From assembly GCA_047967505.1 (NCBI GenBank), contig CM106538.1: DNA of 64,000 nt. The stretch is one strand, 5' to 3'. Shown here in pieces: positions 276 to 48,294 of the stretch; positions within the stretch are counted from its first letter, which is position 1, and every line of letters begins with the position of its first letter. The notes under the pieces are model-generated. The model was not told the DNA's origin. It worked only from the letters and a program-made list of their open reading frames with translations, and made no database searches. The position numbers and the translations under genes are program-made. Source of the stretch: Dipteris shenzhenensis. Taxonomy: Eukaryota.

Positions 276-500
276 TCAAATCTACTACTATGTCTAGAGT
301 CAATTCTAGATTCTATTTTAGACACAAATGTGAAGAAGGTTGAGAAAGTTGTAAGTGGATTTGGAGAAAAAAGCATACCTTGGTACTTTGACATATATAG
401 TATTGAGGGAGCATAGTTAACACGAGTTCACTTATTTGTTTTGTTACCTAATAAAAGTGCATACACTTGTGTTGGATCGGCACATTAAATCACTGAAGAT

Positions 501-3084
501 GTGGTTGGAAAAGAGGGAGATATTGGATTGTTGACCATTATAAATCAAAAATTTCTCTTGGATCCCAGTGATTATGAAGCATCTCGTATGAAGTCTGATG
601 TAGATGACAACATGCACTCAAGAGGCTTGATAAGTGTTGAATCAATTGATGGAAATAAAATTGACACAGTGACAACAATGATTGAATCATATCGCAAAGT
701 TTTAGCAACATTAAAAAAGTGTAAGAGTGGGGAAGGAACAGAGAAAGGAAAGTCGACTATGGTTCAAGCACCAGGTGGTAGCAGAGAAGGGGCAAAGAAA
801 GGAAAGCTAACTGTAGTTGATGTACCACAAGAAGGAACACCTCCAGAGGGTATGCTAGCAGTTGTGGAAAGAAGCAGTGGTAGTGAATTGTAGCCAAGTG
901 GAAAGGTCATAGGAAAAAAAGAGCAAAAGAAACCATCAAGCTTGGTGGAATATGAAAAATACTATCCATTCGGGTTGCATGCAAGATTTCCAATTCCGGT
1001 TGCAAGATGTGTATATAGAGGGTTGAACAAAGAGCATGTCGAGAAGCTTGCTACAGACTTTGGTTATAACTCTAGGCCTCCTACTACTGTAGCGGATTTA
1101 ATGCCTTTCAATCCTAAAACAAAGCAGCCCCTGGAAAGGGTAGATAAAAAGGATTTAACCAAGTGCCACTACTGGATACTATCTGGACAACATTCAGTAT
1201 ATGCTACTAAAATATTCACAGCTAATGGTGATAACAGCACGGTCCAAAGAAAGAACTACTACCACACCCACCAGGCGAGGATTGTAGTGAATTGTCCCGC
1301 ACGCTTTTGTGTGGAGATATCAAAGATGGCAAACCTGGAGTCTCAAAATATCTTGAGACAATCTCCATACATTGATATACTTAAGCAGGTGAGGGGACAA
1401 TGGATTCTCTTTAACAAACCCAAGAAAGCACAATAAGGGCTTGCAAAAGGACATCCAGATCGTGAGAATTGGGATGTAAGTACAGATTTTAATTATGAAT
1501 CATTTTTTACAAGTCTGTTTTCTTAATTATTGCATTCTAATGGATTTTTATCTTTTGTAGGCTTTCATTGACACTGGCAAGGTAACATTGGGCAATAGCT
1601 TTGCCACGAAGGATGTACATATGATAATCATAAGCGATGTCATTTATGATGGTTGGATCTCCATCCTTGAGGATTACATTGCAGGAAAATATTCACAAGA
1701 TGGAAAATGCTATAGGTAACCCATAGTCTCAATGTTTAGATGCTTGCATGGATTGAGTGATGACCAAATTAGTCAAATTCAAAATGACATTAAGGAAGGT
1801 AGAGTAGTCATAGCTAAAACAAAGACTGATGCCATGATTCTTGATATTGAAGGATGAGCTATGCAGATCAAGAGAGATGCTGCACTATAAGAAGAACTTT
1901 ATATGTTTATATCGGCAGAACAACCTTCCTTAATGTTAAAAAATTGGGATGAGTGCAGATTACATTTTAAAATTACTCTAGAATTGTATCATCAGATTTG
2001 TGGTTGTTCTAACTCATGGTTAAAAGTGAAGGGCAAGTAGCCAATCATGATGTGATTGTGTTGTTTGACTCAGCATCAACACACAATGTAATCAACTCGA
2101 AGACTGCATGTTGTTTCTTAGAGAGATTTTTGATAAGGAAACTCCACCATTGCCTGATGCTGCAAAGGGGTATCTGAGGTGGATTATGGGACAAAGTGAA
2201 GGTGCAAGTCATCCACCTGGCCTTGGAGGCTCTACACAGTCGGTTCAAACATGGAGGGTATGGAATTTATACATAATGTGTACCAAGAGCAAATGGCAAT
2301 AGGGGTTGCTTTTTTGGATGTAATGTATGGACCAAGCAGAAGTAGAAATTGGAACGAGGATCGCTTTGAGTGTTTGTTGAAAATCTTGATGACAATCACT
2401 TCTCCCCCAGTGCAATTCCTTCTTGTGGTGTTCTTGACCATGGATCATGTATCATGTTTGAAGAATGCATTAAATAAGACATGCAGACAATATAAAATAC
2501 ACTTCGATTGCCTTAATTTTGAAACTACAGATATATTTGTCACTGGATCTATGGATGGCTTAATTGCCTGTGTACTGGCAAGCAAGGAAAAGCATTTCAA
2601 CAATATTGAGCGCTATACCAATGCATAATGTAAGCCATCAATATATGTTGCACGTGAAAAATATGAAAAATCAAGTGGTGCAGAAGAATTAGCTGATGAG
2701 GATGATGATGATGAATTTGACATTGAATTGTCCTTGAAAAGAAAACGTTCAAGTATCATGAAAGACATGATCATGGGTTTCTGTCAAGAAGATGAGTATG
2801 TATTAGACTTGTTCTCTGAGGGGCTTGCTGCAATAGAGTCTCTTTCATGTAAGAGGCGTGTTGTTTTAGTTGTTGAGACTTATGAGGAGTTGGCAAAGGT
2901 TGAAAGTATATGTTGCATGTATGCTTACAGTAATCATGAAATTCGACAATGGGCTAGCTTGCAAGAACCAATATTGGCAATAGAGGGGGTACCAAAAGAA
3001 GATGATACAACTGAAGGTGGAGGGGATAAAGAAATTGATACCATACTAGGACAAAAAGAGCTTCAACCCTTCAATGAAGAGTAG
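501..3084 (+). pseudogene. Decayed gene: putative ParB/Srx-like N-terminal domain, helical middle region, beta-class amino (N6A/N4C) DNA methyltransferase-like C-terminal domain
   Basis: ORFs 501-893 and 942-1436 are in frame across a TAG. There is a GT-AG intron at 1476-1560, and the frame then continues through single stops. Motifs: YWILSGQHSVYA (~1170-1205, ParB-like), GVAFLDVMYG (DVMYG at 2317-2331, DPPY-like motif IV) and EDEYVLDLFSEG..KRRVVLVVE (~2790-2880, motif I FxGxG-like). Motif order IV then I is that of the beta class. Confidence 0.55.
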
Positions 3085-3890
3085 CATGAGCATTTACAAA
3101 AACACGCTTCAAAGTTTTGGGAAACAGAAGAGGAAGCAACAAGTCCTTGAAATTGTCCTTTTATATACTATTTGTGTTTTCCATATGTTATCTTGCTATA
3201 TTCTCCATATGATGTATTAATTTTGTTCCAAAGATATTTTAATATTACTTGGAAATTTCTTCTATCTCATTGCCATAATTCAAATATTCATATATATTCT
3301 TGAATATGTTTAATTGTCTATATTTCATGAAAAGATGTGTTTGCATGTTGTAATACCTTCGGAGTGTGATACACATCCAAATTTATTTATGAGTTCATAA
3401 ATGTTAAAAAGTGTGTTGAGTCTTGATCGTGATGAATGAATTAGTGTAAATTGTTGTTTCTATCCTTATTCACTTCATATGAATGTTCAAATATGTTTTG
3501 GCCACTTGGCCAAATCTTTTCTTAGTGGGAACACTCAGGCAATGCTAGATAATGTTGGACTCCACTCTATCTATTATGCAAAGGTTTTTGGCATTGTAAG
3601 GATATGTAGTTTTGGGGATTAAAATAACTTGAAAGGATATAGATTCAACAACTTTAGGGGGTATACTAAGCATATAAACATGAATGCTTTCTTTTTTTTA
3701 GTAATCCAATTTTGTTTTGAAAAAGAAAAACATGAATGCTTTCACACAAACAAATTGCATTAATAGCACACAACCTAAAGTTTGACAATTTGGTTTTCCA
3801 TCTCAATCTTCAGTTTGTTTCTACTTATGAATTTCATTTCCTTGTTTATCAACAGATCTTGGCCATCTCAATTTCACATCGCTAGAAGCA

Positions 3891-5141
3891 TTGCCTATAC
3901 ATGTGACATCTAATCCAATGATTCGTTATGTGCCTAATTTGAACATTAGCATGCAAGTTCCAAGCTCAACATGGTTGATTGAAAATGTTGAGGATGCAAT
4001 GTCTGGAGTTAATATTCCATTAACAAATGTGGATGCAAGCTTAGAAGGTAAAGGAGAAGATGCAATGTCATTGTATGAAGCCAAGGTGCAAGAAGAAATC
4101 TTAGAAGGTAAAGGAGAAGACATAATGTCATCCTCAGAGATAATGTCAAAAGAGGTGATAACAAAAATAAGACTAGCAGTGATAATAGATTTGAAAGGGT
4201 TATTACTCGAGCGTTGTTTTTTGAAGTCAAATAAACATATGAGCTTGCACAATGGGAAGCATTGGATTGTTCTTTGTCTTGGGTGTTTAGAGTTTCTACA
4301 ATGTTGCTCGATCACAACCATGTTGGCATTTGGTCCATTGGAGGAGAAAAGTGCATGGTGCAACACATGCTGGAAACTTTGGAGCATCATGTTAAATGAA
4401 AGTTACATTTCTTCATGGTTTGGGGTGCGATGGCATGCCACAAGCATACAAAGAGTAGAATCATTCAACCAGATAGGATGAATGTGGAAGCAGAGTTTAA
4501 ACCACTAATGAGAGTGTGGTGTTGTTTTAAAGAGGAATGCAAACCGGCAAGAACAGTGTTCATTGATGTTTTGCCTTACACGGGTTGTGTTAATCCAGCA
4601 AAAAATTGCATTTTCCCTACAAAATTTGATATAGATTGTGGTGATTCTATTTTGCTTCATGAGTTATTACCATACCTACATATGCTAGATGATGTAGTAG
4701 ATGTGCATAGTGCCATCTCTTCTAACAGATTTGGTCAAGCTCCGATTGTTGAAGGGCATGATATGTTCTATTATTTTCAACTAGTGATCCTTGAATTCAA
4801 AGAAAAAAACAAAGAAGTGCTCGAAAGGATATATCGAATCTCATATGTCTACTCGTAGTTCAAAAAAAGACACAAAGAAAGGTATTACTTCACCTATAAC
4901 CAAAACTAGAGTGAGAGGGACTTGTCCTACTACAAGAAGTATGGTGCATGCTCAACATGTTACATTGAATGAAGAGGAAGAGTGCATGCTAGGAAAAATT
5001 GCCAAAATGGGGCCATTGAAAGATAGTGAGGCAAAATGCTTTGCTATGGTTCTTGGATGCAAGGAAAGAGGAATCACTACTGATGCTGCAAGGGCATTCT
5101 TAGCCAACTTGATTCGATTTTATTGCATAGACAACCCTTAG
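3891..5141 (+). pseudogene. FCP1/NIF-like HAD-family phosphatase, frameshifted
   Basis: VIIDLKGLL (~4180-4205, DLxGLL HAD motif I), GCLEFL followed by VGIWS in a shifted frame, FKPLMRVW, and TVFIDVLPY..NPAKNCIFP (cf. IDDSPYK..NP..IFP of plant NIF-domain proteins). Confidence 0.75.
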
Positions 5142-16435: not shown

Positions 16436-16780
16436 TGACAAAATATGAAGAGGGGAGAGGAGAAGAGAGGAGATGAGGAGAGAGGGCACAGCTAGAGAGC
16501 ACACCACAAATGACTAACTGTACACTAGAATTAGTTGAAAAAATAGAATATATACAAACCCTTTTAGGGTTAGGGTTAGGGGATCTAACCCTTTCCTTTA
16601 TAGCACTCTATAAGGTTAGTGCTATGCACATATGATCACGTGATGGTGCTATGCACACATGATCACATGATGTTGAGCGTGAACTCTCAACACCTTCCCT
16701 CAAGATCAACATCATGAAGTAGGCCTTCCCTCAAGATGATGATTCTGGGGAATCGAAGAAGGACTGAGCATTACATTCCA

Positions 16781-22292: not shown

Positions 22293-23985
22293 AAATTTGG
22301 CCAACCAAACCTAACCCAAGTAAACTTGATTGTACCAACCTAGCATGGTTATCTGAACCTAACCGTAGTTATATGTTATCCGCCACGTGTTGATTTCTGG
22401 AGGATCGGAATCTATGAAAGATTCTGATGGAATCTTGGAGATTCCGTCTCCCTGCGGATTTCCATCGATGGGCTGGAGGCGTTGAAGCCGTCGGTTGGCT
22501 TGCTGAAGGCTTTCGTTGGAGGTCGCCCTGCTTGTGGGCTGTTGAGCGTTGAAGCTTGTGTTTGTAGATGGAGCAGTGGAGACCGTGGAGGGAGGCTGCC
22601 ACTACTATATTGGCGTTGCGGATGGAGGTCGGCTGTAGGCCTTCGTTAGTCGTTGAGGCCTAGGCGCAGTTGCTGCTGCGGTGCTTGCTTCCGGCTGTAT
22701 GTGGCGCTTAAGGTAGTTCGTTGGGGCTTGGGATGAGGTTGCCTTATCAGGCTTCGTGGCATTGTGGCTCTGTCATGCGGACTGGCAATCTTTTTGAGCC
22801 GCTTGCATGGCCGTAAGAGGCTGTTGTTAGCCATTGAAGGCAAGGCGTGGATTGCTTGTTGGGTCGAGGCCGGCAGGAGCTAGGGATCACAGCTGATGTC
22901 GATGAAGTCATTGATGGCATCGCTTGAAGATGGCCGAGCTCGGTGTTGCAAAGTCGCTGTAGGGCGGCCGTCTAGGAGTCGCGGCTACGGGACTATTGTA
23001 GGAGACACCATTGCAGTCGCGCATCGTAGAGCAAAGGCTGGAGATGCTTGCTCGTTGGTGCTATTATTTAGGAGGTCGTGGTCGTGTCGCTGGAGGGCTA
23101 TCACAGAGACTGTTGTCGCTCGTAGTCGCTCGTCGTTGATGGAGCTTAGGAGCCGCTGGTGCAACGAGAGCCGCTGTTGTAGAGGTCGTCGAGGAGGTGC
23201 AGCTTTGTATGTCAATACTTGGAGAGGTGGCTTGCATGGGCAGTTTTGAAGCGTTGCCCGTGAGCCCGTGAACCCGACGGGTCAAAGCTTGGAGAAGCAG
23301 GCCGTCGTGGATGAGCCCTCGCTGAGAACACTATGCATAGAGAGCCTTATTTGTTGTAGGCATGTAGTCAAGGTCTTGGAGACTTGGCGAGCATGCAAGG
23401 GCTGATGCGCCTCAGGTATGCAGTCGTTGAGGGAGTCTAAGAACTCTTTCTCACAGATATCTCAAAACCTCTCTCTCTTTCACACAATCTCTCAGAGTGG
23501 ATGGAAACTTTCTCTCTATTTCTCTTAAGAAGAAGAATCAAATCTCTCACAAACTCTTGAAGGAGATGAACGGAAATATCTCACCAAATGGACGGAATTT
23601 TCTCTCAACGGAAGTGAAGGGAAGGATCTCACAATCACTCAAGAGAACTCTCAATCTCACAATCTCTCTCACACTCTCAAGAATCACAATGTCTCAACGG
23701 AAGACAAGGGAGCTCTGATACCATGACAAAATATGAAGAGGGGAGAGGAGAAGAGTGGAGATGAGGAGAGAGGGCACAGCTAGAGAGCACACCACAAATG
23801 ACTAACTGTACACTAGAATTAGTTGAAAAAATAGAATATATACAAACCCTTTTAGGGTTAGGGTTAGGGGATCTAACCCTTTCCTTTATAGCACTCTATA
23901 AGGTTAGTGCTATGCACATATGATCACGTGATGGTGCTATGCACACATGATCACATGATGTTGAGCGTGAACTCTCAACACGGTT

Positions 23986-27429: not shown

Positions 27430-27900
27430 GAGATTCACAAAAATCTCAGCAGAAATGAATTGTAATGAACATAGGTCTCTCTCTCCCTCATAAGAAACTA
27501 TCATAAGCACTCAAGCAATGAACGAAAATATGGATGGAAACTTCTCTCACAGAAGAGAAAACTCAATCTCAATCTCTCAATCACTCAATCTTTGTCACAC
27601 TCTCAAGAATCACAATGCCTCGGCGAAAGGCAAGGGAGCTCTGATACCATGACAAAATATGAAGAGGGGAGAGGAGATGAGTGGAGATGAGGAGAGAGGG
27701 CATAGCTTGAGAGCACACCCCAACTGACTAACTGTACACTAGATTTAGTTAAAAAAATAGAATATATACAAACCCATTCAGGGTTAGGGTTAGGGGATCT
27801 AACCCTTTCTTGCACTCTATAAGTTAGTGCTATGCACATATGATAACGTGATGGTGCTATGCACACATGATCACATGATGTTGAGTGTGAACTCTCAACA
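27430..27900 (-). mobile_element. Truncated copia family C: 5' LTR (27650-27900), PBS and short leader
   Basis: Homologous to 23724-23980; GCTCTGATACCA at 27638-27649; leader similar to ~23480-23720; no second LTR found. Confidence 0.9.
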
Positions 27901-28569: not shown

Positions 28570-29139
28570 AGATAGACCATTTCTATAGCATTTTCCTTTA
28601 TGATACATGCATACATGTCAAGAGAAGTTATCTTGTATTACAATCTAGAATCATCCCTCAAGGGAGTACAATTTGCCATGTAGTTTAATGTTGAACTCAT
28701 GTTTGAGGTTGGGAAAAGAAGAGAAAGCATAATTCTATGTAAAGACATACCAAATGGGATTAATCATAGGGAGAAATCCAAACCTATACTATAGATCGAT
28801 TGTATTAATACAAAAATGTGAGAGTCATAATCAAAGACATCCCAAATGGGATTGCTGAGATAGATCTAAACTCATATTACAATTTTGGTTTCAATACAAA
28901 AATGAGTGAGTCATAGTCAAAATTAAAAGTACATCTATGATGATAGTATCTACTCCTATGCATATGTAGTCATAGGCTACTGTGAAGGTTGTTCATCAGG
29001 TAGCTTAGGTAGAGGCTATTGTGAAGGCTATTGGACCTCCTTGGGAAGGTTCTCCTCCATTGTAGGATGGTCCTCATGTCCCTGTTCCTTCACTTTGGTA
29101 GAAGCAGCAAGCTCCACTTTAGCACAGCAATAGGCTCCT

Positions 29140-31028
29140 TCACTTCAACAATAGGCTCCTTAACTTCAATAGCAGTGGGCTCCTTTGTTCCAGAGCCACT
29201 ACCTCTCTCCCTGTCTCTTTATGTCTCGAGGATTCTTTATGAGCATAGCCAAGTAGCATATCTATGACCATGGATCTATATGCAACCACATACATGGATG
29301 TAAAGCTATCCTCTATACGCTGCAAGTAAGAACAAGGGTAAGAAAGATTAAATTATATTTTGTTTCACAATCATCATTTGTACAAGAGAGATTTTGAATA
29401 TACATATTTATATACTTACCCTCTCTGGTTGCAGATCTTGAAAGTATGTATCTAATAAATACTTGGCATGGATCATTGTCCTCCACCCACATGAATGGGG
29501 ATCCTCTTGTTGTGGAGCCTACACAAACTGAACAGCTTTAAGATATATCTATGGTTTGTAATGCCGGAGGCAAAAACCATTGTTGAACACACATAAATTT
29601 CCTTACCCTTAAGCTAATGATTTCAATAGAATCTATTAGGTTTACATGTGGAGGAAAATGATCCAAGACATCTAATAACCTCTTTAGGTAGATAAAATCC
29701 TATTGTTAATAATGCTAAAGAAGCCACTCAGAGCTTTATTTATAGGGCTATAGTAAAGAAAACATACAGGTCAATCTCCTTATGTGTTCCATAGAGGGAG
29801 TTCATGCAAAAACATTGTTTTTGTTGGAGATCAATACAGACTAGGCTCCAATGGTTACTGAAAAAAAAGGCAAATGCATCAATCAACATTACAATAACAA
29901 AATGCTAGAAGATATGAAATAAAATGTCTTATTCACTTACTCAGCATGATAAGGTAACAAGATGATAATGATCTTGGTGAAGTCACAATGCTTAAACCAC
30001 TTAACAAGATCCACCATGGAAACCGTTGGATTTCTAAGCAAGGGAGAGATGCAGGGATCTAGTATATGAACTTTGATTTGATGCTGCTCTTTTAACTGTG
30101 CTCTATACATGCCGGTAGAAAAATTGTTATCAGTGCATTGCATATAAGAAACTTAGTCCATGTCATTACTTAATCAAGTAACTCAACCAATATTGATAAT
30201 TTAAAGCATGAAGATCAGTTACAATAGAACTGCTATAATAATTGATTCTGTCACCCACTCTTCTCGTGACTTCAAAGCTCTCAAATAGTCCTGCGTCATT
30301 TCAATACTCCTTACAATTAGGGAATCTGATAGCTTGATGGCAATATTTGAGCCTAGTGTAGTTAGCCTTTGATTATTTTAAAGTTCTCTTAGGCCACTCT
30401 CTTGAATATACTGCCTATTGGAAGCCTCCCTTTGCTCTCTCATGGCATGCTCATATGCAGCCTTGCCCCTTGTGTCCCTACTACATGTTACCTCCTATAC
30501 ATCTATCCCTACATCCTTTGGCTTCCTTGATGGTGGAACTAATAAAATATCTCTCATCTTGAAGTCCACCCAATCTCATGGACTAATGAGTTTGTCATAT
30601 CTATACCGAACTCTCTTGAGTGTCTCAAAATCCTTTACCATTAAGGTGACTCTATGAGCGTGAGCTGCTACAAGCATGCTATCCTGGAAGAATTCTATCA
30701 TAAAGTCTTCAGCTCCCTCTGGGAGGGTAAACATTAAAGACCTATGCCACCTATATCCTAGCTAATTATCATTGCAGATCTCCCTTATAAGACTTTAAAA
30801 GGGAGCCTTTGGAATAGCATATCCCATGGCCTTTTGTGCCTTCCTTATCTCCCTCAGTACACTCACCTTTTGTGAAAACTTTCTCTTTTTTGTTTGTTGG
30901 AGAATGTGCATTGACTTCCCTTTCCTCTTATGAGACCCCCTCAAACTGGCACTCTTTTGTGTGGCAGCTTTGGCAATGGGTGGCCCCTCACTGGCTACCA
31001 CCCTGGCTGTTGACTTTGTCCTTGCCAT
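29140..31028 (-). pseudogene. Histone H3-like domain fused in frame to a Ulp1/SENP (peptidase C48) protease; about five exons
   Basis: MARTKSTAR..VLREIRKAQK..IPKAPF*SLIREIC..EGAEDFMIEFFQDSMLVAAHAHRVTLMVKDFETLKRVR (31028-30606). The same frame continues to DYLRALKSREEWVTESII (~30290-30235). Later exons give LLPYHAD-NHWSLVCIDL (HW at 29848-29853), MNSL and APQQEDPHSCG (Cys at 29489-29491). GT donors lie after 30223, 29941 and 29420; AG acceptors before 29857, 29518 and 29319. Confidence 0.85.
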
Positions 31029-31149
31029 TAGCTATGAAGAAAGTCTGTCAACGTGTATAACCAAGATATTAATTACAAAACTGCTCCAAATTGACCATGA
31101 GGAGGGATAAGAACACACAAAAACATGACCCTTTACCAAAGGAAAAAAT

Positions 31150-32820
31150 ATTCTTAAGAAAGTGATTTTGATAGTTGGACATATAACCAATAGATCAAAT
31201 CGCTTTCTTAAGCAGATTTTCAACAAACAATGAAAATATGATTAAGAAAGTGATTTTGAGAGTTGGGAGATGTCCAACAGACCAAATTTCTTTCTTAAGC
31301 ACACTTTTTGAATGGAGATCCAACAAATCAAATATATTACACAGATTCACAATGAGTGCATTTTTTTCTCTTTTCTAAGTTCCAAATTACAAATAGTAAC
31401 TAATGGAGAAGGAGCAATACACAAAAATCAAGAAACAATAGTACCTCTAAAAATATGCTTAAGAAAGTGATTTGGAGGGTTAGGGATAGGTCAAATAGTC
31501 CAAATCTCTTTCTTGAGCACATTTGCTAAATAATGGTCCATACAAATGAATATGCCTCCCAGATTTCTAACTCTCTGCCCAAATACATCAAGGATTGCCC
31601 TATCATTCATACAAACTACATTTGAAAAGGAAGAGCATCAAATAGATTTCTAATTCTCTACCCAAATAGATCAACAATTCCATTCTATGCTCCTTTATCA
31701 GTTACTAACTACATTCAGTAGCTTGGACAGTTACTAACTACATTCAGTAGCTTGGAGAGGAAGAAAAACACCTAAAATCAGAAACAAAAGCTTTTGTAAA
31801 AAAATGCCTAAGAAAGTGATTTGGAGTGTTGGGGACACGCCCAACAGCCCAAATCGCTTTCTTAAGCACATTTTCTAATTGTTGGTCTACACACTTAAAT
31901 AAGCCTCCATAAGTTCTAGCTATCTACCCATATATAATAGGAGTCGCATTTGGTGCTCTTTCCTAAGTTACTGACTACCTTCAAGTACTGACACAGAAAT
32001 GTGCCTAACAAAGTGATTTGGAGTGTTGGGAATAGGCCCAATAGCCCAAATCACTTTCTCAAGAGCACATTTTGATTAAAATAGTGCACACATACAAAAA
32101 CCATCAGATTTACTAAAAGACTAGATTCCACATACCAAGTGGTAGAGTCTGCTTGCGATTTTGAGTGAGTATGCTTATACTTGTGGTAGAGTCTGCTTGC
32201 ACTTGTGGTAGAGCTTCTATGTACTTGCAATGTTGACTTCCAGGAAGATAAGCGGATGAAGGATTGAGAAAACCAAACAAATGAGGTTGGAGCATAGCTA
32301 TATGAAGAAGCCTCCAAAAATGGTAACGTGCTCCCTTGTGAAGTGTGCCCACATGTGTGCCATAAATAGCTTGGTACCTTCCATAAATAACAACCGGTCA
32401 CATCACCTAGATGCTTGTGCCCAAATGTGTGGTTCGTATGGACCTCGATACTCGTGCTCAAGGGTACACAAAGCTGTCATGGCTCACGAGTCATTTATGC
32501 CCTCCTTCTTCTCAGATCCCTTTGCCTCTTATTTCTTTCGACTACTCTCACAGCCCCCATACATTTATCCTCCTCAGTCAAGTGTGCAATGGAGCAACCT
32601 ATGCAAGGTATGCAATCAGGAAACCTATCCAATAGGCCAAAATTATTTTCATAGCTTGAGTTTTGGAAAATGTGCCTAAGAAAGAAATTTTGCCCTATGG
32701 AAGGTTGGCCAGCTAGCCAAATCGCTTTCTTAAATACATTTCTTGAAAATGTGCTCTAGAAAATGATTTGGTGTTTTAGAGGACTTGCCAATATGCCAAA
32801 TCAATTTCTTAAGCACATTT
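31150..32820. repeat. Seven dispersed 60-75 bp imperfect palindromes (TAAGAAAGTGATTTGG..loop..CCAAATCGCTTTCTTA)
   Basis: Copies at about 31153-31212, 31242-31300, 31455-31523, 31803-31873, 31997-32072, 32668-32741 and 32747-32820. Confidence 0.9.
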
Positions 32821-34349
32821 TGAAGAACAACTCTTCTTTTGTCACTTTTGGAGTTCCTACATTACAAAAATTATGTTTGCTCTTTCAGATCCAAGGGAAA
32901 AAGCCAAAGGATCCCAAGCAAGGAAGGTAGACAATGGTGGAAAGGACCCCAAGGGAAAAAGCCAAAGGGAAGAGGGGAGTGAAGGGGGATGGAGTGGCAA
33001 ACAAAAGGGCACTACAATGGAAACAAGGGAACACCCAAAAAACTCTTAGAAGAGAAGAGGGAGCTTGTATTCAAACTTGTGCAAACAACAATGAAGACCA
33101 AATTCAACACTTTGGCCTTTTATACATGTCACCTTTTGAAGGGAGGGCCAAGCCTATTGGAAAATGGAGGAGTACAGTTTTTGATTGGACATTTTGGGTA
33201 AATGCCTGCATCACACAATAAATCAACATGTTGTAAGCCTTCCATCCTCATATTCTCTCTTTGCATTGCACCTACTTGTGGACCCTTCCATCGTTTTTGC
33301 ATAGGCACATTTTCTTCTTCTAAATCAATATGGATATGGTAAAGTCTCTTCTTACTAGATTTTTCTTCAATGGCATGGTCACATGTTGCCTTTTTTTTTA
33401 GAAACCTTGTCCCATTGTTTCACACCCTCGCCAGCTTTTTTAAAACAAAGTGTTAGCAATGGACTTACCGTGATAAATCCATGTTAATATTTTGTGGCGA
33501 TGTTTAAGTGGGGATGTTTCAAATTTCAAAAAAAAAAGATACTTAAAGGTTATTTATGGGTTCCTAACCACAAAATCTTACAGGCGGCATAAGTCTACCA
33601 TGAAAATTCCATGTTTACTGTAATAAGTCCATGTTTACCTTTCATGTGGGCGTTTAAAATTTTGAAAAACACAAAATCTTAAATGTTAATTATGGGATCC
33701 TGACACAGAAATCTATTGACTGTATGAGTTAGGACCCACTTTAGAGAGAGAATATGATAGAAGAATTTTATGCCAATTCATTTTTGTGGATTTTGGAGGA
33801 AAAAAAATGAAGAGATTGCAGATTTCTTACAGGGCCCCAAAATGAGTTTCCTTTTTTCCTGATGCAGTACAAGCCCATCTTGAATGACCCTAATGTATGC
33901 ATTTGTCCTGAGAGTTTTGATCTCGAGGACAATCAGCAAGATTCCTTTTATCTCACAAAAACATTGATTCACTAGCTGCCAATGTGGAACATTGCATATG
34001 ATTACAAAAACTTTTGTAAAATGAACAAGTAAGTAATCCAAAGAATGAGGTATCTATGCCCACAGAGCAATATTACCACCATTTTGTGAGTACACAACAT
34101 GAGGGGCACTTTCATCATTAGTTTTGTACATATATTATGGTTCACAGGATGTAAAACACTATATTATAAAGGAGCTAGAGCTTTTGTAAGACCAATGTAA
34201 CTACCAAATATTTTTTTGTAATTAAACATATATTCAATTGTTATCTTCTGATGTTTGTCTATGCTGTAAAGTAGATTGCACATCCACAAGTTCTATCTTA
34301 ATGTTATGCAGTTGTATGAGTTCTCTTTCACATGGATAAAATTTACTAT

Positions 34350-45329: not shown

Positions 45330-46872
45330 GGTTAGGTGGGGGGCTGCCCGGCGGCGGCGCCCGGGGGGGGGGGGGGTGTTTCGCGGGGGGGTGAGGGGGG
45401 GTTGCGCGGGGGGTGAGGGAGGGCGAAGGGGTGCGCGGGGGGGGGGGGGGGGGTTGGCGCGGGGGGGTGAGGGAGGGCGAAGGGGTGCGCAGGGTGCGAG
45501 GGAGGGCGAGGGAGGGCGAAGGGGTGCGCGGGGGGGTGAGGGAGGGCGAAGGGGTGCGCCGGGGGGCGAGGGAGGGCGAGGGCGAGGGGGCGGGGTGAGT
45601 GCGGGCACGGGGAACGGGGCGGGGGAGGGCGGGGGGTGAGAGAGGAGAGAAGGCGGGGTGGCGCGGGCTGGGGGGCGCGGGGACGGTGGCGGGGGGGCGG
45701 CGCTACGTGCGCCGCCGCGGGGGCGGGGCGGGGGACGGCGTGGGCGGGGGGCTGGGCTGCGGGCGGGGGCTGGGCTGCGGGCGGGGGTGGCGCGGTGCGC
45801 GCCACCGCGGGGCGGCCCTAGGCTACGGCGGGGTGGCGAGGTGCGCGCCGCCGCGGGGCGGCGGCAGCTCTACGGAGCGCCGCCGCGGCGGGGTGGGGGG
45901 TCACAGAGAGGGGAGAGGGGGGGTAAGGGGGAGGGGGTAAGCGTGAGAGAGAGGAGAGGGGGGGCGGGGTGAGAACGAGGGGGAGAGAGGGGAGAGGGAG
46001 TGAGAGAGGGGGTGGGAGAGGGAACGAGGGGGAGAGAGGAGAGAGGGAGTGAGAGAGGGGGATGGGGAAGGGGGAGGGGGAGATGAAGGGGGAGGGGGAG
46101 GGGGGAGAGGGAGAGGGGGGGGAAGAGGGGGAGGGGGGGGGGAGAGGTGGAGGGGGGGAAGGGGGAGGGGGGAGGGGGGGGAAAGGGGGAAGGGGGGGGA
46201 GGGGGAGGGGGGAGAGGGGGAGGGGGGAGGGGGAGGTGGAGGGGGGGGAAGGGGGAGGGGGGAGGTGGTGGTGGAGGGGGAGGGGGAAAGGGGGGTGGAG
46301 GGGGAGGGGGGAAGGGGGGTGGAGGGGGAGGGGGGAGGTGATGGTGGAGGGGGAGGGGGAAAGGGGGGTGGAGATGGAGGGGGGAGGTGATGGTGGAGGG
46401 GGAGGGGGAGAGGGGGGGGTGGAGATTAAGGGGGAGAGGGGGGAGGTGGTGGTGGAGGGGGAGGGGGAAAGGGGGATGGAGATGGAGGGGGGAGGTGGTG
46501 GTGGAGGGGGAGGGGGAGAGGGGGGGGTGGAGATTAAGGGGGAGAGGGGGGAGGTGGTGGTGGAGGGGGAGGGGGAAAGGGGGATGGAGATGGAGGGGGG
46601 AGGGGGGAGGGGGGAGGTGGTGATGGAGGGGGAGGTGGTGGTGAAGGGGGAGGGGGAGGGGGGAGGTGGTGATGGAGGGGGAGGGGGGGTGGAGGGGGAG
46701 GGGGGAAAGGGAGGTGGTGGTGATGGAGGGGGAGGGGGGAGGTGGTGGTGAAGGGGGAGGGGGAGGGGGGAGGTGGTGATGGAGGGGGAGGGGGGAGAGG
46801 GGGAGGTGTTGGTGAAGGGGGAGGGGGAGGGGGGAGGTGGTGATGGAGGGGAGGGGGGAGAGGGGGAGGTGT
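45330..46872 (+). repeat. About 1.5 kb extreme G-rich low-complexity tract in the gypsy 5' leader
   Basis: CpG-rich G-runs at 45330-45900, then almost pure G/A with GGT (GGGGGA/GGAGGTGG units) to ~46870; preceded by poly-T at 45303-45320. Confidence 0.95.
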
Positions 46873-48294
46873 AAACAAAAGACGGAAATCGAAAAGCAGG
46901 GAGAAGTGGTCACCTGATCGCTCTCCAAGTCTTTCTCGATGTAACGGGATTGTCGCGGAACAATGGACGGTGGGTGGAAGGCTAGGTCATCGCTGCGAGA
47001 AGGGCTCGATGATGGCGAGGATAGGAGTAAGGGGGTGGTCGATGGAGAGGGAGGAGTGTCTTGCGTGGGGCTCGGAATGAGGAAGAGAATGGAGGCAAAA
47101 GTGAAAGATGAAGAATGAGGGGGGTGGAGTAGGTTTTTATAGGTTTGGATTTTAGGTTTAGGGTTTAGGTTTAGGGTTTAACCCTAAACTCTTCCCGAGC
47201 CATAACTCTTTATGGAGAGCTCGGTTTGCCTTTCTGTAAAAAGGTAAAATGATCGTAATTGAAAGCTCTACGCAACCGTGTCCACTACCTAGCCTAATTG
47301 TACATCATGTGGCTTTTACACCTACCTACGCATGTTTACTCGCTACTTAAGACGCTAGTCTCCCCGGTAACGGCACCAAATGTTGGCTCTTTCTTACTGC
47401 TTTCATAGGAAGAGTTGGGTTTTCTATGTTGTAGGGTTCCGAGGCTTTTTGTCACCTACAGATATATTGGAATTGTCGTTGTAGTATATGTGTAGCTTAG
47501 GACCTCGAGTCATGTTCCGGTGAGAGACGTAGGCTTAAGTGTGGTAAGCAAGTAAAGTGCAAGCATGTGTAAAAAGGCACGTATCCATCGTTGTTGGGGT
47601 AATGAAGGCTTTCGCCTTCATTGGGGGTTGTAGGGTTTAGGAGGAGTTTAAGGGTTCAGAAGGAGGTTCCAGGGTTTAGAAAGAGTTCAAGGGTTCAGAA
47701 GGAGGATCCAGGGTTTAGAAAGAGTTCAGGGTTAGAAAGAGTTCCAGGGTTTAGAAGGGGTTCCAAGGTTTAGAAGGAGTCCAGGGTTAGAAGGAGTTCC
47801 AGGGTTTAGAAGGGGGTTCCAAGGTTTAGAAGGAGTCCAGGGTTAGAAGGAGGGTCCAAGGTTCGGAGTAGAGTACATGGTGGAGAACTCGTCTCCCTCG
47901 TAGATCATGGAGTTTAAGGGTTTAGGAAAGCATAGGAGTGGGAGAGGAAGAAGGTGTAAGAGCATGGGTGAAGGAAGAGAGAGAGGAGGAAGGAGGAGGA
48001 GGGAAGAGGAGGAGGGAGAGGGAGGGGAGAGGAGGAGGAGGAGGAGGGAGGAGGAGGAGGAGGAGGAGGAGGGAGGAGGGAGGAGGAGAGGGAGAGGGTG
48101 GGTTGCAGGGTTGGAGGAGAGGGGAGAAGGGTTGCAAGGTTAGGACATGCTTTTGGACGTGCAGTGCAAGAAAGCATGGACACTTGAGACAAATGCTTGG
48201 AATACCAATGTAGACTCAACACAATGCCCCAAGAGTGTGGGCTTCATTCCATTATGGGGTATTTATACAAGTTGGAGAGCTTCTCTCTCTGCAT

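Follow-up and report, generated by a model that had tools for sequence, protein, structure and literature searches.

A pseudogenised gene predicted to join histone H3 to a Ulp1/SENP-type C48 protease, and the multi-copy family to which it belongs

Core histones are, to our knowledge, almost never fused to enzymes. A large additional domain is carried by macroH2A, in which the core histone is extended at its C-terminus by a linker and a big non-histone domain, an arrangement that places the domain in chromatin. Among plant genes that join a Ulp1 protease to another module is KAONASHI (KIU), in which Ulp1 is joined to VANC in angiosperm VANDAL elements; the word 'histone' does not occur in the available portions of a 2026 review on the capture of genes by transposable elements (TEs) of plants that covers it (PMC13317346), and those of a 2024 survey of plant SUMO proteases, ferns included, describe no H3-protease architecture and mention no transposons. 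Here we examine the locus at positions 29140-31028 (minus strand) of a 64,000-nucleotide stretch of DNA from Dipteris shenzhenensis (contig CM106538.1, GenBank assembly GCA_047967505.1; the whole stretch is referred to as the window), where a histone H3-like frame leads into the exons of a Ulp1/SENP-type cysteine protease of family C48. An earlier note on this DNA knew of no described H3-Ulp1 fusion, which agrees with the literature we searched: no description of an H3-C48 fusion was found in full-text searches, with subscription journals and supplementary files outside their reach, and fern supplements listing TE or gene families may bear on the claim of novelty. The locus is a pseudogenised copy belonging to a family of H3-C48 fusion genes, and we consider it moderately probable that the intact protein would be an H4-paired protease targeted to chromatin.

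The window contains one copy of the H3-Ulp1 gene, for which we arrived at the following features (here and below, L numbers designate related DNA loci and P numbers related proteins).

30223..31028, minus strand: exon 1, starting with the H3-like tail and the fold (to about codon 142), then the conserved extension, the linker and WVTESIII, the first C48 motif; from Pfam and colinear relatives
30579..31028, minus strand: the H3-like part, with the MARTKSTAR tail, alpha-N and the histone fold, ending in RVRYRYDKLISP; from translation and Pfam
29941..30102, minus strand: exon 2, C48 domain (AQLKEQ...LLPYHA), with AG before and GT after; from the six-exon model
29768..29857, minus strand: exon 3, C48 domain, with the catalytic His (NHWSL) and an Asn at the site of the catalytic Asp (CMNSL); PF02902, 27.4 bits
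29607..29679, minus strand: exon 4 (LLDVLDHFPP...IISLR); aligned with the Adiantum models and with L001 and L002
29420..29518, minus strand: exon 5, with the oxyanion Gln and the catalytic Cys (APQQEDPHSCGWR); from the six-exon model
28960..29319, minus strand: exon 6 (RIEDSF...), with a stop at 29142-29140 and a frameshifted KEP/EE-rich repeat tail to about 28960; from translation

The earlier note had proposed that the H3 frame runs on through stop codons past 30795, the end of the open reading frame (ORF) track, into a complete H3 fold, a linker of about 110 amino acids and a spliced C48 protease with the motifs WxTESII, HWSL, MNSL and PQQ..SCG, the copy itself being dead, and this description of the locus is borne out throughout. 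The product opens with MARTKSTAR at an ATG at 31028 on the minus strand, and the ORF track ends at the first of five in-frame stops in exon 1, namely codons 78 (TAA, 30797-30795), 89 (TAG, 30764-30762), 151 (TGA, 30578-30576, just past the histone fold), 178 (TAG, 30497-30495) and 217 (TAA, 30380-30378). With these stops read through the histone frame reaches WVTESIIIAVL at about 30255-30223, translating to ...EEWVTESIIIAVL, and a linker of about 107 amino acids separates the fold from the first C48 motif. Scanned with X at each stop, the read-through product matched PF00125 Histone over residues 40-136 (66.5 bits with a cut-off of 26.4, E-value 3.5e-18), and the stop-free exon carrying HWSL and MNSL matched PF02902 Peptidase_C48 by itself at 27.4 bits (cut-off 20.7). 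The six-exon model has GT..AG at all five introns and 1410 nt in frame, is colinear with spliced gene models of Adiantum nelumboides and has no stops in exons 2-6, all five internal stops lying in exon 1. Past 29140 the original frame seems to go on, frameshifted, as a KEP-rich tail to about 28960, and no NIF exon was found downstream of the gene. Interrupted by five stops, frameshifted in its tail and lacking the NIF exon, this copy is a pseudogenised member of the family and itself does nothing.

The presence of a TGA directly after the histone fold in the window copy raises the question as to whether the histone and the protease belong to one gene. A word-based search with the read-through product returned 27 proteins, and a HMMER search of 1.84 billion representatives returned 18 at an E-value of 1e-30 or better. 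The position of the TGA is occupied by a sense codon in all 16 aligned relatives, every one of which runs on into the conserved extension and linker, and the full-length aligned relatives share the end ...(E/D)(V/L)(T/N)D.(I/V)...LR, which is the first C48 motif and after which the reading becomes intron-like. Of the proteins fetched, another 36 matched a strict pattern of fold plus linker within a single ORF; about 20 further members, whose motifs vary, likewise read through, and none ended at the fold. Relatives thus show neither a conserved post-fold stop nor a separate start for the protease, in keeping with the fusion put forward in the earlier note. Two hypothetical proteins of Adiantum nelumboides derived from spliced models carry both domains: P0037 combines Histone (83 bits) with Peptidase_C48 (25.6 bits) in a Pfam scan of ten long hits, and P0170 has PF00125 and PF02902 both listed in its source table. 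Searching with the protease and linker alone recovered six Adiantum proteins only, and a lookup in a protein atlas placed P0037 with generic C48 clusters only (scores of about 0.76) and gave no usable match for P0003.

The family is large and diversified. A tree was built from 143 H3-like rows covering H3 positions 50-125, taken from about 170 proteins examined, with support assessed by the Shimodaira-Hasegawa-like approximate likelihood ratio test (SH-aLRT). Forty-nine members, 38 labelled by motif and 11 truncated or variant, fell into one clade with an SH-aLRT of 98, and on this sequence evidence at least 49 distinct H3-like proteins in public data form one family of single origin. Eleven of the family proteins are hypothetical proteins of Adiantum nelumboides on 11 contigs that differ in length, among which P0170, P0172, P0171 and P0044 show 84-96% identity to P0037, some are fragments and P0287 is a chimaera with a Copia reverse transcriptase (RT). 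A scan of metagenome contigs added 11 family loci (L001-L010 and L059), all in one assembly. By tblastn with the conceptual product of the window and P0170, the exon order and the HWSL, NS and SCGW motifs are common to L001, L002, L003, L005 and L009. The window included, exon 1 is intact at 8 of 12 loci (L001-L005, L007, L008 and L009) and broken at the other four (L006, L010, L059 and the window). Synonymous divergence (dS) between loci is saturated, so that it could not be computed for nearly all pairs, and nonsynonymous divergence (dN) is 0.35-0.77; long open frames in loci so diverged argue for purifying selection. The sole close pair, L009 and L059, gave a dN/dS of 0.16, over 81 codons with very few changes. 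A scan of viral contigs yielded just two distant H3-like matches at 25-31% identity, leaving a viral origin unsupported. As judged from these comparisons the H3-Ulp1 fusion is a genuine, many-membered and diversified gene family with the window copy as one member.

The histone module points by sequence to descent from canonical H3 and not from CENH3, since the start of the tail is canonical and, after the family's own members, the best matches are to canonical H3 at about 1e-28, with other variants at about 1e-15. A CENH3/CENP-A identity was considered and set aside given the canonical-like tail start, the rank of canonical H3 ahead of other variants and the separate clade. MARTK is found in 18 of 19 aligned members (MARTKSTARV in the window), and the same fraction keeps the first eight tail residues including K4, the rest of the tail being rewritten. 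The Histone profile matched L001 and L002 at 84.8 and 64.9 bits, and Foldseek with the N-terminal part of the P0037 model gave nucleosomal H3 at 38-46% identity. Unlike H3, which ends a few residues after alpha3, the ORF of every member that reaches this point goes on, into a conserved extension of the form R-x-R-Y-D-K-L-L-x-P...D-x-K-M-x-D-I-L-x-I-P-P. Pairing with H4 was predicted for the fold and extension of P0002 against an H4 cut from a fetched protein, alongside three controls. The pair scored 0.85 and the best control 0.00, on a scale whose pairing mark is reached by 51 of 78 solved complexes and by 2 of 108 mismatched pairs, with contact agreement of at least 77% and a partner predicted local distance difference test (pLDDT) value of at least 69 across runs; H3-H4 is a solved, textbook pair and the score possibly reflects memory, so the prediction shows likeness and not binding. 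In the predicted complex residues 157-162 of the post-fold extension touch H4. Taking the conservation of the H3 fold with this in-silico pairing, incorporation of the intact protein into nucleosomes is plausible.

The C-terminal part matched peptidase C48 in Pfam and its relatives in both a PDB sequence search and Foldseek, as the earlier note had anticipated. With P0172 as query the PDB search gave SENP8 (1e-4), then SENP2, SENP1 and Ulp1, and the AlphaFold model of P0037 gave SENP2 in Foldseek (2.6e-4), then Ulp1 and NEDP1 (E about 3e-4), its protease core having a pLDDT of 32-50. In the same model pLDDT is about 70-79 in the histone part and 80-89 in the linker helix. The window has the His, Gln and Cys in order (HWSL, PQQ, SCGW), colinear with the relatives and alignable to SENP8.

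A further module, missed in the earlier note, appears to belong to the full-length relatives L001 and L002, where PF03031 NIF matched at 95.5 and 58.5 bits respectively (cut-off 21.8) on the same strand as the gene. L001 carries two NIF/FCP1-like ORFs after the tail ORF, and in both loci a short GT-AG intron links the tail ORF in frame to a NIF ORF. The post-protease tail consists of tandem coding repeats (L001 2598-3014, L002 2114-2511, L009 2265-2608, L003 2299-2430) that are acidic and EE/Q-rich in L001, proline-rich in L002 and L009 and K/E-rich in L003; as the repeats differ between loci the tail is fast-evolving and of low complexity. Elsewhere in the window, at 4179-4732 on the plus strand, opposite in strand to the H3-Ulp1 gene and 25 kb away from it, lies a degenerate NIF/FCP1-like ORF (ORFs 3831-4481 and 4400-4858) reading VIIDLKGLLLER...CIFPTKFD...LLPYL. 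It matched the NIF ORF of L001 by tblastn (E 1e-7) and Pfam NIF at 17.1 bits, under the 21.8 cut-off, and may be the relic of a second, related unit. Upstream of this remnant, at 489-3084 (plus strand), are four open frames of 134-180 amino acids, one containing CHYWILSGQHSVYATK, for which Pfam gave no match at E-values up to 0.1.

Also missed earlier was an array of repeats upstream of the gene, which we found in a repeat search.

31143..32827, no strand assigned: upstream array of seven units of about 81 nt, each an inverted pair of arms of about 19 nt of the GCTTAAGAAAGTGATTTGG type

The array sits 115-1800 nt 5' of the ATG, and the window contains 13 matches to the arm where 0.07 are expected, all within 31152-32814 and none elsewhere. 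Arrays of the same build and of other sequence occur in L003, L004, L007, L008 and L009/L059, so that the window and these loci each have, immediately 5' of the ATG, an array of 68-87-nt units that is built from inverted motif pairs and specific to its subfamily; none was seen in L002, L006 or L010. A shared core of 7-9 nt was sought among the arrays, and the candidate ATCGCTT, present just in the window and L009/L059 and not at the other loci, is probably due to chance.

On the reading we favour, an intact gene would encode one polypeptide in which an H3 module (an ARTKQTAR tail with K4 invariant, alpha-N and the fold) would be followed by the extension, a helical charged linker, a Ulp1/SENP-type C48 domain (His, Asn for Asp, Gln, Cys) and a low-complexity tail, with one or two NIF/FCP1-like modules at the end in at least two full-length relatives. 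The C-terminus of H3 tolerates added domains, as in C-terminally tagged H3. The H3 module would pair with H4 and be handled as an H3-H4 dimer, this pairing would carry the protein onto chromatin and possibly into nucleosomes, and the tethered protease may then strip neighbouring chromatin proteins of SUMO or of some other ubiquitin-like modifier.

Several observations weigh against this reading. The relatives beyond A. nelumboides look like unspliced genomic ORFs, both of the spliced fused models (P0037 and P0170) are automatic annotations, a single assembly supplied every one of the 11 related DNA loci, and in L001, which is chimeric, nt 1-680 are bacterial DNA. On the opposite strand of that segment lies a bacterial CdaA/DAC diadenylate cyclase (PF02457, 137.5 bits); the L001 contig is probably an assembly chimaera and its upstream region is therefore unreliable. 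The AlphaFold model of P0037 has a mean pLDDT of 60, lower still in the protease core as given above. All 11 sequences with coverage of the catalytic Asp position (the window, with CMNSL, P0037, P0170, P0172, P0174, P0287, L001, L002, L003, L005 and L009) have Asn there, a change evident from the alignment that the earlier note had passed over and on account of which protease activity is not assured. His-Asn-Cys triads occur in other cysteine proteases. On the histone side, K9 of the tail is a lysine in just 10 of 19 aligned members. The catalytic motif of NIF/FCP1 is DxDx(T/V), and the corresponding ILDVNGLLL in 3 of 3 ORFs has Asn for the second Asp and Leu for T/V; with DVNG in this place the NIF module may be inactive, and it is absent from the Adiantum models as well as from the window copy.

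Other explanations of the protein were weighed against the same evidence. Were there no fusion at all, an H3-variant gene and a Ulp1 gene would simply lie side by side and the open frame between them would be due to chance or annotation, as the TGA directly after the fold in the window might suggest; yet every relative examined has a sense codon in that place, the 100-130 codons from the fold to the first C48 motif are open in loci whose synonymous sites are mutually saturated, and the histone and the first C48 motif share an exon, all of which makes this account very improbable. We would give as little credence to a self-cleaving precursor, raised in the earlier note, whose protease would cut the linker and free an H3 variant. 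Ulp1-fold proteases do process precursors, which is a general precedent, but the aligned linkers have no ubiquitin-like or SUMO-like domain and no conserved Gly-Gly or similar site, and their best-conserved motif is hydrophobic, proline-rich and predicted to pack on H4, so that this suggestion fares badly. A soluble H3 mimic or decoy that is never deposited, and that binds H4, chaperones or the readers and writers of the H3 tail in order to guide the protease and NIF module, would account for a tail whose start is kept with K4 in 18 of 19 members while the remainder is rewritten, and a post-fold extension in predicted contact with H4 at residues 157-162 would also suit it, on a prediction whose pass may be memory. 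The whole fold is conserved, however, including the alpha2-alpha3 region (AAHAHRVT, KD..L.R.R), which is beyond the need of a tail mimic, and we regard the mimic as doubtful.

A separate question is how the gene spreads and whom it serves. It could be the cargo of a DNA transposon, an anti-silencing factor like the Ulp1-bearing VANC/KAONASHI genes of Mutator-like elements (MULEs) without terminal inverted repeats (TIRs), with the upstream arrays serving the element as recognition sites of its own; such a reading can stand alongside the mechanism favoured above for the protein, differing from it only in spread and beneficiary. The family has many copies at dispersed sites, including recent ones that are nearly identical as well as numerous fragments, a pattern that by sequence fits a selfish element without proving one. 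In the same direction point the 11 Adiantum nelumboides proteins on 11 contigs, the close group at 84-96% identity, the fragments and the Copia chimaera P0287 among them, the 4 of 12 broken loci, the position of the window copy among long terminal repeat (LTR) retrotransposons and the inverted-pair arrays directly 5' of the ATG in the window, L003, L004, L007, L008 and L009/L059, and in the available part of the review VANDALs carrying KIU are described as recognising their own non-coding motifs without TIRs (PMC13317346). Against it, six-frame Pfam scans found no DNA-transposase domain on the minus strand at 22.4-38.4 kb or the plus strand at 24.0-38.4 kb, the scans around the gene returning nothing beyond the histone, the C48 exon and a fragment of a Copia RT, and no transposase was found in L001 or L002. 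A repeat search, a self-BLAST of the whole window and a sensitive BLAST of flank against flank gave no TIRs flanking the gene. The CACTA-type end motif CACTACAA, tried as a candidate, was at chance level (3 matches against 2.28 expected), the nearest pointing away from the gene, and in L004 the array is separated from the ATG by a TATA-like sequence and a leader, as in an ordinary promoter. With neither transposase nor terminal repeats found, the inference in the earlier note that a mobile element encodes the fusion is unproven; we hold transposon cargo to be possible while not expecting it. A bolder combination, which we offer as speculation and think unlikely, would be that of 'enzymatic histones': diversifying nucleosomal H3 variants of fern type with a protease for ubiquitin-like modifiers, an RNA polymerase C-terminal domain (CTD)-phosphatase-like module in full-length members and their own upstream inverted-motif array, forming a selfish or anti-silencing unit without a classical transposase.

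The window also contains a Copia element with LTRs at 16436-16693 and 23724-23981 (99.6% identity) and with its gag, integrase and RT on the minus strand at 16.9-21.2 kb. A third copy of the LTR at 27574-27900 (92-93% identity) lies 1.1 kb downstream of the tail of the dead gene and may mark an event that removed the 3' part of the gene. At 45800-47200 the window is G+C-rich (GC 0.58-0.60, GC skew up to 0.72), with imperfect tandem repeats and long minus-strand frames.

If true, a conserved family in which a complete H3 carries a SUMO/NEDD8-type protease would offer a natural route for writing an eraser activity into chromatin, with some members adding a CTD-phosphatase-like module. It would provide a handle on the role of the Ulp1 domains repeatedly captured by plant selfish DNA and on how much cargo nucleosomal H3 can bear, and it flags fern 'hypothetical proteins' that are split or truncated by current annotation.

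In comparison with known systems, the family resembles canonical H3 (H3.1/H3.3) in the ARTKQTAR(K) N-terminus, the alpha-N LREIRKAQK, PFQRLVREI, LQEAAE, AAHA.RVT.M.KD and L.R.R, and also in the Pfam Histone match, the predicted handshake with H4 and the Foldseek match to nucleosomal H3. It differs in being only 34-54% identical, in a tail that is shortened and rewritten after residue 9 and in having at least 300 residues with enzyme domains beyond alpha3. For the protease, SENP8/NEDP1, SENP1/2 and Ulp1 are the best sequence and fold matches and have HW, QQ/KQ and CGW in the same order, whereas the E-values are only 1e-4 to 1e-2, the Asp is replaced by Asn and a SUMO substrate cannot be distinguished from NEDD8. 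macroH2A differs from the family in that it is an H2A and not an H3, its macro domain is a ligand binder and not a protease, and it is single-copy and vertebrate. KAONASHI differs in its partner, VANC in place of histone H3, and in its angiosperm setting, the present family being of a fern-type lineage with Asn for the catalytic Asp and with no MULE transposase found near the window gene or in L001 and L002. Like the family, KAONASHI is, in passages of the review, a multi-copy plant gene combining a transduplicated Ulp1 with a chromatin-directed N-terminal part, with arrays of short motifs in nearby non-coding DNA (PMC13317346), and by analogy it is the closest precedent for a mobile origin of the H3-Ulp1 genes.

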